From a virus, in the UHGV virus genome UHGV-1497419: DNA of 64,000 nucleotides; one strand, given 5' to 3'. Position 1 is the first letter of the stretch; every line of letters begins with the position of its first letter. The notes beneath the pieces were generated by a model that was not told where the DNA came from, ran no database searches, and worked only from the letters and a program-made list of their open reading frames with translations. Made by a program: the position numbers and the translations under genes. This document shows, one piece after another, positions 34,757-36,408 of the stretch.

Positions 34757-35021
34757 AGAGTCTTTGAAAAGGGTTTTTAAGTGATGTGGGGCGAGGCTCG
34801 GTGAGGTGGGGTAAGGCATAGTGCGGTGCTGTTTGGTATGGGTAGTTAGTCTCAGCTACATTAAAATGAGACTTACCTTTTTAAAGGGTCTTTAAACAGG
34901 GTCTTTTAATAAGGTTGTGTGATGTGATGTATGGTGCTGTGGAGTTTGGTTAGGTCCGGTCAGGTATGGTATGGTGATGTGAGGTATGGGTGGATGGTAG
35001 TAGCCACGTTAAAAATCTACC
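34757..35021 (+). repeat. structured GT-rich intergenic element, copy A (GGTCTTTAA-type boxes, GGT-rich tracts, conserved 37-nt hairpin at 34841-34877 with T-run, distal stem GGTAG/CTACC)
   Basis: Near-identical in architecture to copy B at 36162-36408; the 37-nt hairpin block is identical in both. Confidence 0.6.
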
Positions 35022-35097
35022 AAGTTTCTAAAGAGTCTTCTGTTGAGGGTTCTTTATAAACAACTTAACAATCAATTAAAGTGTGGAGCTAAATGCT

Positions 35098-35685
35098 ATG
35101 AAACTGCTAAATATCAAAATCACTGGTACTCGTCCTTTCTTGAGCCATAACGATACGCTGTCAGACCCATTAAACCCTCTGACAAAATATCACAAGTCTC
35201 TGTCCAGTAAACGTAAAAAGACTGACGAAGACTATGCGCTCTTAGCAGAAAGCCAACTGGTAACTTCTTGTTACTACGATGAGCAGCTAGGTTTTGTTAT
35301 GAACGGTGAGATGATTGAGGCTTGCATCAAGTCTGGTGCAAAACTCAACAAACTTGGTAAGGTAATTGACCGAGCCATTATGCTGACAGATGTAGTCTTC
35401 CCAATGACTATCAAGAACTGTCCAGCAAACCCACAAGAACTTGCTAAGAATCCAGACTTTATCTATGCTAAGTCTGTTAAGATTGGCACAGCACGAGTTA
35501 TGAGCTACCGTCCAATCTTCCGTGACTGGTCTGTAGAGTTCGGTTTGATGTTCGATGAAGAGCAAATCACCAAAGAAGAACTCTTAATGGTTCTGGAAAA
35601 TGCTGGTAACCTTTGTGGTGTAGGTGATTGGCGTCCACGCTTTGGTCGTTTTTCTGTAGAAGTTATTTCAGAAGGTAGCGTTTAA
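35098..35685 (+). CDS. hypothetical protein (cassette gene 1, flanked by the GT-rich repeat elements)
   Basis: 195 aa from the ATG at 35098 with GGAG 9 nt upstream. Confidence 0.45.
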
Positions 35686-35687
35686 TT

Positions 35688-36128
35688 ATGAATACAAAAG
35701 CATTAGCAGCAAAGTTTAGTTACGGTGACACTGTATCACACTCTGAGATGGATACCTTCTTAGGTATTGTGAAGCCAACTTATCAAGGTGACATTGTTAA
35801 GTACGAAGATGAAATGAAGGCTTATGCACTTACACGTCTAAACCGACTTGAGAAGTTTATTGAAAAGCTTCTTAAAGAAGAGAAGATTTATCTGGTTGCT
35901 TCAATGGGTGTTGGTTATCGTGTTGTTGAACCTAAGCATCAAGCAACTATTGCAAAACGTAAAATGTCTGGTAAGATTGGTCGAGCTTTAAAGCAAGCCA
36001 CTCAAGCGATTGAGAATGTGAACACTATGGCACTTAGCCATCAAGAACGTTCACGACTGATTGAACAGCAAAACCACTTAGCTGCTATGAAAGCTAACAT
36101 TAACAAGCAACGTAGAAAACCTTTCTAA
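35688..36128 (+). CDS. hypothetical protein (cassette gene 2)
   Basis: 146-aa ORF, 2-nt gap from the upstream gene. Confidence 0.45.
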   Translation: MNTKALAAKFSYGDTVSHSEMDTFLGIVKPTYQGDIVKYEDEMKAYALTRLNRLEKFIEKLLKEEKIYLVASMGVGYRVVEPKHQATIAKRKMSGKIGRALKQATQAIENVNTMALSHQERSRLIEQQNHLAAMKANINKQRRKPF

Positions 36129-36139
36129 GTTGACTAGGT

Positions 36140-36162
36140 AGCCTCTTCGGAGGCTCCTTTTT
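36140..36162 (+). terminator. rho-independent terminator (AGCCTC-UUCG-GAGGCU plus T5)
   Basis: 6-bp stem with UUCG tetraloop followed by TTTTT immediately after the 36128 stop. Confidence 0.55.
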
Positions 36163-36408
36163 AAAAGGTCTTTAAACAGGGTCTTTTAATGAGGTTATGT
36201 ATGGTTTGGTTGGGTGTGGTGGTGTAAGGTGTAGTCAGGCTTGGTGAGGGTAGTTAGTCTCAGCTACATTAAAATGAGACTTACCTTTTTAAAAGGTCTT
36301 TAAGAGGGTCTTTTAACAAGGTTAGGTTAGGTCTGGTGTGGTAGGGTTAGGTGGGGTTAGGTTTGGTGTGGTATGGAAGGATGGCAGTAGCCTTATAAAA
36401 AATCTGCC
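36162..36408 (+). repeat. structured GT-rich intergenic element, copy B (hairpin at 36249-36285; distal stem GGCAG/CTGCC)
   Basis: Same order of boxes, GT tracts and hairpin as copy A; distal stem shows compensatory changes relative to copy A. Confidence 0.6.

Follow-up and report, generated by a model that had tools for sequence, protein, structure and literature searches.

The closest described relatives of the locus analysed here, positions 34690-36408 of a 64,000-nt stretch of the virus genome UHGV-1497419 (called the window, at its full length), are the systems called Viral Interference Programmable Repeat (VIPR). These are known from two bioRxiv preprints of April-June 2026. According to the first one (bioRxiv 10.64898/2026.04.26.720920) a VIPR system consists of a minimal RAMP protein (Vipr), an accessory protein (Vap) and guide RNAs of about 100 nt (vrRNAs), each of which has 9-16 YNNGG repeats and ends in a 3' tail that does not vary and that is a pseudoknot in the SUSP1 clade. 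Recognition of double-stranded DNA by the NN dinucleotides follows a '1-nt skip' rule, and transcription is repressed; in most targets the skipped base lies at the wobble position. For the SUSP1 clade, the natural targets were located in a satellite phage of E. coli, and satellites are reported to encode vrRNAs, too. For SUSP1 itself, small RNA sequencing (sRNA-seq), pull-down, GFP and lambda assays showed expression of the vrRNAs, their co-purification with Vipr and the repression of targets, and vap1 raised the protection. The second preprint (bioRxiv 10.64898/2026.04.26.720927) describes, by cryo-electron microscopy (cryo-EM), one protomer per repeat, a sequestered GGY, a displayed NN and an R-loop triplex, and also resolves the 3' pseudoknot of a SUSP1 vrRNA. 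The 2026 preprints put VIPR forward as ancestral to CRISPR and as a new, programmable way of recognising DNA.

We assign 34690-36408 with high confidence to the type II VIPR loci of the SUSP1 clade. The identification is based on the anatomy of the locus, on protein and RNA homology, on covariation in the tails of the RNAs and on matches to targets. The genome harbouring the locus is a Felix O1-like myovirus of the genus Felixounavirus; a search with 34650-36480 gave matches to 232 phage records, with 96% for the best one (Escherichia phage MET-P1-301) and ~92% for wV8. Four vrRNA genes, all on the plus strand, are arranged as two upstream and two downstream of vipr and vap1 (Table 1), in a slot which in the annotated Felixounavirus loci (wV8, ASO1B) follows the DNA ligase gene. 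This kind of system is already described in the 2026 preprints, and the annotation libraries have no models of it so far. Because such models are absent from Pfam, NCBIfam, PADLOC and Rfam, public records speak of hypothetical proteins, 'DR_4' repeats or terminators; in the wV8 record part of a unit is labelled merely 'DR_4'. The repeats listed in the Felix O1 genome paper are others and not the units of the VIPR locus.

An earlier note, made from the letters of the window alone, had described here two ~230-bp elements around a two-gene cassette of unknown function. The features it listed are all found in the sequence, neither element contains an open reading frame (ORF) of at least 60 aa, just as it had stated, and its suggestion of structured non-coding RNAs agrees with the units being putative vrRNA genes. 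The two elements have to be divided, however, into four units of ~125-145 bp, and the function of the cassette can be named: its genes, which the note had not linked to the RNAs, encode Vipr and Vap1.

Proteins, guide tracts and tails

A Vipr protein is a minimal RAMP with an RRM core, a G-loop and a thumb. The product of the first gene finds the entry 'SUSP1 Vipr protein' (PDB 36pp) with E 2.6e-127 over residues 1-195, and 190 of its 195 residues are identical to SUSP1 (97.4%). The Vipr of the window has 13 of the 14 residues which the cryo-EM preprint names as contacts to RNA or DNA (H17, K33, R39, E71, M72, K82, G87, K88, R138, C173, D177, W178, R179). Residue 175 is given in that preprint as T175, part of the Y3 pocket, and is V both in the window and in the IMG/VR sequence of SUSP1 (L019); this may be a difference of numbering or a typographical one. 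Vap1 is identical at 145 of 146 positions (99.3%) to the SUSP1 ORF directly downstream of vipr. Neither protein has a match in Pfam, NCBIfam or PADLOC, and PHROGs gave only families of unknown function.

Each unit consists of a 5' box, a GT-rich tract and a conserved 3' segment. The four tracts are strictly periodic in the register G-G-Y-N-N; the earlier note had correctly seen GGT-rich tracts varying in sequence but had missed this strict period. A score for a GT pattern of period 5 reaches at least 6/10 solely at these four places in the 64 kb, on the plus strand only, and the pattern was not found in another 45 kb, taken from a related genome (L003). The statistics on the guides were made with 68 unique tracts and 65 unique guides from 21 phage loci. 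In the pentamers of the 68 tracts G1 has a frequency of 0.75, G2 of 0.98 and Y3 of 1.00 (T 0.90), while N4 and N5 are nearly random with an entropy of 1.9 bits. Such regularity exceeds by far what chance would produce. This composition indicates that the GGY triplet is under selection and the NN dinucleotide free to vary. The NN string of vrRNA A1, for instance, reads GA GG GA TC GA GG AA AT GC GC TT AT, and none of the four NN strings of the window recurs in any of the other 20 loci, despite Vipr proteins which are 96-99% identical.

The unit next to the tail is nearly constant, usually GGTAT (NN 'AT'). In the 45 guides that could be matched to targets (see below) it mismatches at 58% of the positions, the next unit at 28% and the internal units at 2-7%. 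By this comparison the last repeat unit seems to be a piece of the constant RNA and to lie outside the guide. Whole vrRNAs do not fold more stably than shuffled sequence (nested folding), which fits a guide bound by protein. The earlier idea of iterated protein-binding sites can be retained in so far as the GGY triplets would, by analogy with SUSP1, be bound by Vipr protomers, but on the RNA and not on the DNA. The varying GT tracts would be the guides, as a counterpart of CRISPR spacers, and the constant hairpins would be 3' caps.

Two types of tails follow the guides. The type-1 tails of A1 and B1 are identical, as already described in the earlier note for a 37-nt hairpin followed by TTTTT. 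The outer GGTA/TACC stem of this hairpin is not supported, since it is paired in 65% only and is broken in variant tails, whereas an H-type pseudoknot in which GTAG/CTAC crosses GTCTCA/TGAGAC is 100% paired over 15 distinct variants. In its second stem three pairs change on both sides, e.g. from GTCTCA/TGAGAC to ATCGGA/TTCGAT. The type-2 tails of A2 and B2 show the same pseudoknot topology, with 98% pairing and again three pairs changing on both sides, and both stems of the B2 tail have compensatory changes relative to the A2 tail. The double change from GGTAG/CTACC to GGCAG/CTGCC, which the note had pointed out in its distal stem, was confirmed as one among several such changes, and that stem makes up one arm of the pseudoknot. 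Covariation across relatives, which the note had proposed to check, thus extends beyond this single stem to 3 + 3 tail pairs. As few independent substitution events are behind these counts, the covariation is supportive of the pseudoknots rather than decisive. Separate support is given by the cryo-EM structure of the SUSP1 vrRNA, in which the pseudoknot was resolved.

vrRNA A2 shares with the single upstream tract of SUSP1 (L019) its position directly upstream of vipr and the type-2 tail. We take this SUSP1 tract to be SUSP1 vrRNA1; the construct used for cryo-EM carried vrRNA1, and the pseudoknot resolved there would then be the type-2 tail.

Because of their T5 runs, the folding energy of the hairpin (nested folding, -12.5 kcal/mol, z -2.8) and the annotation of the equivalent site in phage ASO1B as a rho-independent terminator, the type-1 tails probably also act as intrinsic terminators which set the 3' ends of the vrRNAs. 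A consensus terminator scan did not call them, and the type-2 tails have no T-run. These terminator-like properties could also be read in a different way, namely that the units are cis-acting attenuators or terminators, at which a TRAP-like ring protein bound to ~11 triplets controls read-through into the cassette and the downstream genes. In the trp leader RNA 11 (G/U)AG triplets, overlapping an antiterminator, are separated by spacers of 2-3 nt, and the TRAP oligomer reads one triplet every 5 nt over ~55 nt. The 5-nt period, the 11-15 repeats and a hairpin with T5 after two of the tracts resemble this arrangement. But the adjacent protein is the RAMP Vipr and not TRAP, the triplet is GGY and not (G/U)AG, two of the four tails are without a T-run, and satellites carry the same RNA with its own promoter and no downstream cassette. 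Nor can attenuation account for NN dinucleotides which match foreign DNA under the skip-1 rule only, and for SUSP1 the vrRNAs were shown to work on reporters in trans. We therefore regard attenuators as highly unlikely, and the tails of VIPR guide RNAs may terminate transcription as a secondary role.

Table 1. Features of the putative VIPR locus and its borders, with positions in the window.
Feature	Position	Strand	Description
Promoter-like site, sigma-70 type	34690-34717	+	TTGACA-16-TATACT, 11/12, upstream of the first vrRNA
Unit A1	34757-34882	+	5' box, GT-rich tract, conserved 3' segment
5' box, A1	34757-34779	+	AGAGTCTTTGAAAAGGGTTTTTA
Guide, vrRNA A1	34780-34839	+	12 GGYNN units, last unit 34835-34839
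Type-1 tail, vrRNA A1	34840-34882	+	38-nt GGGTAGTTAGTCTCAGCTACATTAAAATGAGACTTACC + T5
Unit A2	34883-35021	+	5' box, GT-rich tract, conserved 3' segment
5' box, A2	34883-34912	+	AAAGGGTCTTTAAACAGGGTCTTTTAATAA
Guide, vrRNA A2	34913-34987	+	15 GGYNN units, last unit 34983-34987; directly upstream of vipr
Type-2 tail, vrRNA A2	34988-35021	+	pseudoknot stems GTGG/CCAC and TGGTAG/CTACCA
vipr	35098-35685	+	195-aa Vipr, minimal RAMP
vap1	35688-36128	+	146-aa VIPR accessory protein
Terminator-like hairpin after vap1	36140-36162	+	AGCCTCTTCGGAGGCT + CCTTTTT
Unit B1	36163-36290	+	5' box, GT-rich tract, conserved 3' segment
5' box, B1	36163-36192	+	box motif match
Guide, vrRNA B1	36193-36247	+	11 GGYNN units, last unit 36243-36247
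Type-1 tail, vrRNA B1	36248-36290	+	GGGTAGTTAGTCTCAGCTACATTAAAATGAGACTTACC + T5, identical to A1 tail
Unit B2	36291-36408	+	5' box, GT-rich tract, conserved 3' segment
5' box, B2	36291-36319	+	box motif match
Guide, vrRNA B2	36320-36374	+	11 GGYNN units, last unit 36370-36374
Type-2 tail, vrRNA B2	36375-36408	+	pseudoknot stems AAGG/CCTT and TGGCAG/CTGCCA
Promoter-like site for next gene	36428-36456		TTGACA type, 10/12

Predicted targets in E. coli satellite islands

In the preprints the steps of the mechanism are shown for SUSP1, and near-identity suggests that they can be carried over to this phage. One Vipr protomer per repeat unit would sequester GGY and display NN, and the NN dinucleotides of the filament would pair with double-stranded DNA which carries the complementary dinucleotides spaced by one skipped base, (xNN)n. 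An R-loop triplex would form and block transcription without cleavage of the DNA, and Vap1 would enhance the silencing. Most likely the locus is a weapon of the phage against satellites that parasitise it.

Eight satellite islands of ~11 kb each (L028-L035) were scanned for targets. Besides hypothetical genes they contain genes for a small recombinase, an HNH endonuclease, a tape measure, a baseplate protein and a large serine recombinase, and by these large serine recombinases they are integrated at no fewer than three chromosomal sites (tonB-yciI, yecD/DUF72 and wrbA-ymdF). Their tape-measure and baseplate genes are Felixounavirus-like. In blastn the phage gene at 49279-50076 (minus strand), which lies beside the tape-measure gene, finds genes annotated as 'phage baseplate protein' in 474 out of 5426 complete genomes of E. 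coli, and the identity between phage and satellite amounts to 90-96% at the nucleotide level over ~550 nt. For the proteins, the first preprint gives 72% identity between the baseplate protein of the satellite and that of the phage (bioRxiv 10.64898/2026.04.26.720920).

With a skip of one base, 45 of the 65 unique guides reach a match of at least 80% in the eight satellite loci; when 0, 2 or 3 bases are skipped, none of the 65 does. Among the guides of the window, vrA1 matches the large recombinase gene of the tonB-linked satellites (21/24; site in 158 complete E. coli genomes), vrA2 the recombinase gene of the yecD/DUF72-linked satellites (26/30; 98 genomes), vrB1 an intergenic leader (18/22; 337 genomes) and vrB2 the satellite baseplate gene (19/22; 70 genomes). 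The counts of shuffled guides that reach these scores are 0/1000 for vrA1 and also for vrA2, 16/1000 for vrB1 and 2/1000 for vrB2. If the last unit is left out, the scores are 21/22, 25/28, 18/20 and 17/20, in the same order.

The vrB1 target lies ~55 nt downstream of a strong promoter, TTGACA-17-TGnCATAAT. The match of vrB2 is a patch of ~36 nt in which the satellite baseplate gene diverges sharply from the otherwise near-identical homologue of the phage, and in the phage's own baseplate gene the best position for vrB2 reaches 14/22. No self-target was found in the 64-kb window, where the best self-matches are 17/24, 18/30, 15/22 and 17/22 for vrA1, vrA2, vrB1 and vrB2, respectively. Comparing match positions with the coordinates of the coding sequences places the skipped base on the wobble position in both recombinase targets.

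In agreement with the preprint, two of the satellites also encode vrRNAs of their own (L032 2677-2736 and L034 2810-2874, both on the minus strand) with 12-13 units, a sigma-70-type promoter and the type-2 tail of the phage, and the tail in L032 has a further compensatory change. As homologues of vipr and vap were not found in the eight satellite loci, the satellites presumably borrow the Vipr of their helper phage.

Several points weigh against this assignment and against the function derived from it. Expression and processing of the vrRNAs and repression in this phage would follow from SUSP1 by analogy, and the same applies to the assembly of a ribonucleoprotein of Vipr and vrRNA and to transcriptional silencing; both source papers are preprints. 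None of the guides has a perfect natural target, the best being 21/22 without the constant last unit, and BLAST of idealised sites against E. coli genomes gave no perfect full-length target. The vrB1 target is tentative, being only marginally above the null of shuffled guides, and in the vrB2 target the skipped base is on codon position 2 and not on the wobble position. The search for targets was confined to the eight satellite loci and BLAST of idealised sites. Finally, the 5' boxes are conserved and are left unexplained by the VIPR model as published in the available parts of the preprints.

Relatives of the locus and its regulatory signals

Each of the 18 Felixounavirus contigs fetched with the 195-aa Vipr has 3-5 tracts around the same two genes. 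Among the 232 matching records 117 cover at least 80% of the query, and 118 records encode Vipr at an identity of at least 90%. Felix O1 (L036 3700-3900; NC_005282 ~57700-57900, minus strand) has neither vipr nor vap. Its 282-bp gap between ligase and ORF87 contains one hybrid orphan unit, in which 9 pentamers follow a promoter and a box of the A1 type and are followed by a tail of the B2 type. The orphan looks like the result of a deletion via recombination between units, and the arrays appear to gain, lose and reshuffle guides through recombination between boxes and tails.

The earlier note had also considered recombination-prone repeats marking a mobile cassette and had proposed to look for relatives which lack the cassette at the repeats. 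Felix O1 is such a relative, its junction lies within the repeats, and about half of the records have the full cassette; this part of the suggestion is borne out, but as an account of function it is not. If the units were functionless direct repeats bounding a mobile two-gene cassette, a single hybrid unit exactly at the cassette site and a unit number varying between 3 and 5 in close relatives would be well explained. Such repeats do not explain, on the other hand, that GGY is kept while NN varies, that covariation preserves the pseudoknots of the tails, that the guide information matches satellites, and that tracts and Vipr remain associated down to 37% protein identity. We consider functionless repeats extremely unlikely; recombination between the units is real, but it is a by-product which concerns the evolution of the VIPR locus and not its function.

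The distribution among relatives bears also on a replication origin, another suggestion of the earlier note. G-rich non-template tracts downstream of a strong promoter would in this case form R-loops or iteron arrays. The locus does lie among replication genes (DNA polymerase 29565-32294, per the annotation of Felix O1, and ligase 33546-34682), a strong promoter is located upstream, and the non-template strand of the tracts is G-rich. But the cassette and three of the four units are missing in roughly half of the records of related phages, Felix O1 among them, which makes an essential origin unlikely, as this would not be dispensable. An iteron origin has iterons of ~17-22 bp in helical phase and an AT-rich unwinding element, and it is indispensable; here the repeat unit is 5 nt, NN is free and the locus is absent from Felix O1. 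The strict 5-nt phase with hypervariable NN is foreign to known iterons and R-loop origins, the NN code matches satellite DNA, and the same RNAs are encoded by non-replicating satellites. An origin finds no support in a dispensable locus whose tracts carry a 5-nt code, and its probability is close to nil. An element for packaging or a terminal repeat was excluded as well, because the ends of the relative UAB_Phi87, mapped by experiment, adjoin the tRNA cluster far from the locus (PMC4837284).

Distant Vipr homologues of 37-40% identity (L027, L022) have GGT tracts of period 5 on the coding strand around the homologue and a downstream partner. In BLASTP Vap1 finds the downstream ORFs of these distant loci with E 3.3 and 0.016, and homology is unproven. 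In L027 the GGTNN tracts on both sides of the vipr homologue (37% identity) and of a 148-aa partner are very regular and comprise 14-19 units (2885-2959, 3548-3642, 3685-3779 and 4249-4318); hairpin tails are absent, and each tract ends in a T-run shortly before the next ribosome-binding site. In L022 (IMGVR_UViG_3300037067_002413, 146 kb; 4060-5400) ~11 units of 110-130 bp stand in tandem behind the homologue (40% identity). Every unit combines a hairpin segment that is conserved (GGTTCTCTGAACGAAnCCGCTTCGCAAGAGGCGGTTTCCTTGAGCGAATC) with a GT-rich tract of less strict period 5, which gives a much longer array with a different constant part.

The 5' boxes consist of AAAGGTCTTTAAacaGGGTCTTTTAA and variants, are 23-30 nt long and contain two GGTCTTT half-sites. 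Every phage vrRNA tract has such a box in front of it, and within the 64 kb the box is confined to the locus; it is absent from the two satellite-encoded vrRNAs examined (L032, L034), which carry their own promoters. A general phage promoter was rejected, as the motif is confined to the locus and a sigma-70 scan made no call. The box could be a dedicated signal for biogenesis or regulation, e.g. a processing site or a binding site of Vap1. We rate it as possible, but rather doubtful, that the box is such a signal, that guides turn over by recombination and that orphan guides are usable by a co-infecting Vipr-positive phage. If true, the turnover of VIPR guides would be recombinational and not acquisitive, and an orphan unit would still be of use in a co-infection. 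Several other leads were dropped once the identity of Vipr and the matches under the skip rule had explained the pattern: the likeness of the box to a Nus boxA (GGTCTTTAAACA vs GCTCTTTAACAA), a Csp-binding GTCTTT motif, a Chi-like GGTGG, two-tetrad G-quadruplexes, a C-rich rut site on the minus strand, and R-loop origins resembling Ig-switch pentamers.

The TTGACA-type promoters mentioned in the earlier note are present as two matches to the consensus (Table 1). The first one, judging from its sequence, is likely the early promoter of the locus, and the same promoter also precedes the orphan unit in Felix O1. The -35 hexamer of the second one lies inside a perfect 13-bp inverted repeat at 36409-36456 (AAATAAGCTATAA / TTATAGCTTATTT) with a T-run behind it, which may serve as terminator and promoter in one or as an operator. 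Further downstream, the 99-aa protein encoded at 37091-37390, which the earlier note had suggested as a binding partner, is a clear regulator of the Cro/C1 type with a helix-turn-helix (Pfam HTH_3, E 5e-10), for which no link to the VIPR units was found.

Comparison with known systems

In the annotation Vipr and Vap1 take the place of two 'hypothetical' genes, and ~500 bp of 'intergenic repeats' turn into four guides whose predicted targets can be named. Nothing fundamental is added beyond the 2026 preprints; the genes for the guide RNAs were picked out independently from raw sequence. Of remaining interest are the phage-specific targets, the 5' box, the orphan units and a last repeat unit which is apparently not used. 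The presence of target-bearing islands in the 474 E. coli genomes mentioned above bears on predictions of host range and yield for Felix O1-like phages in biocontrol.

The VIPR locus of SUSP1 has the same gene order and strand, GGYNN vrRNAs (11-15 units in the window, 9-16 repeats in the preprint), both tail sequences, the same genomic slot and the same predicted class of targets, the E. coli satellite islands. The two loci differ in the array, which comprises two units upstream and two downstream here but one and three in SUSP1 (L019), and in the guides, as none of the four agrees with a guide of SUSP1 or of the 19 other relatives.

An Rfam search of the locus gave no credible family and only four sub-threshold chance matches. 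In a CRISPR array identical direct repeats of 23-50 bp alternate with unique spacers of similar length, usually beside cas genes. The constant segments (tail and box) in the VIPR locus, by contrast, measure ~65-70 nt, and its variable segments are internally periodic with 5 nt. Class 1 CRISPR-Cas systems resemble VIPR, as described in the preprints, in a RAMP protein (of the Cas7 family) which polymerises on a guide RNA and whose thumb flips out bases at a fixed period, in a variable guide with a constant structured handle, and in their use in conflicts between mobile elements. They differ in that VIPR has no repeat-spacer array, no cas1/cas2 genes for adaptation, no nuclease and no requirement for a protospacer adjacent motif (PAM). 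Its guide is non-contiguous, with two of five RNA bases pairing with two of three DNA bases, the system is encoded by a phage, the outcome is silencing, and neither Rfam nor PADLOC gives a match.

TRAP, which reads its leader RNA with the same 5-nt step, differs from VIPR in the triplet, which is GGY in VIPR, and in the fold, as Vipr forms a helical filament and TRAP a closed ring. The spacer bases are informative in VIPR and irrelevant in TRAP, and VIPR acts in trans on DNA, whereas TRAP acts in cis on a terminator.

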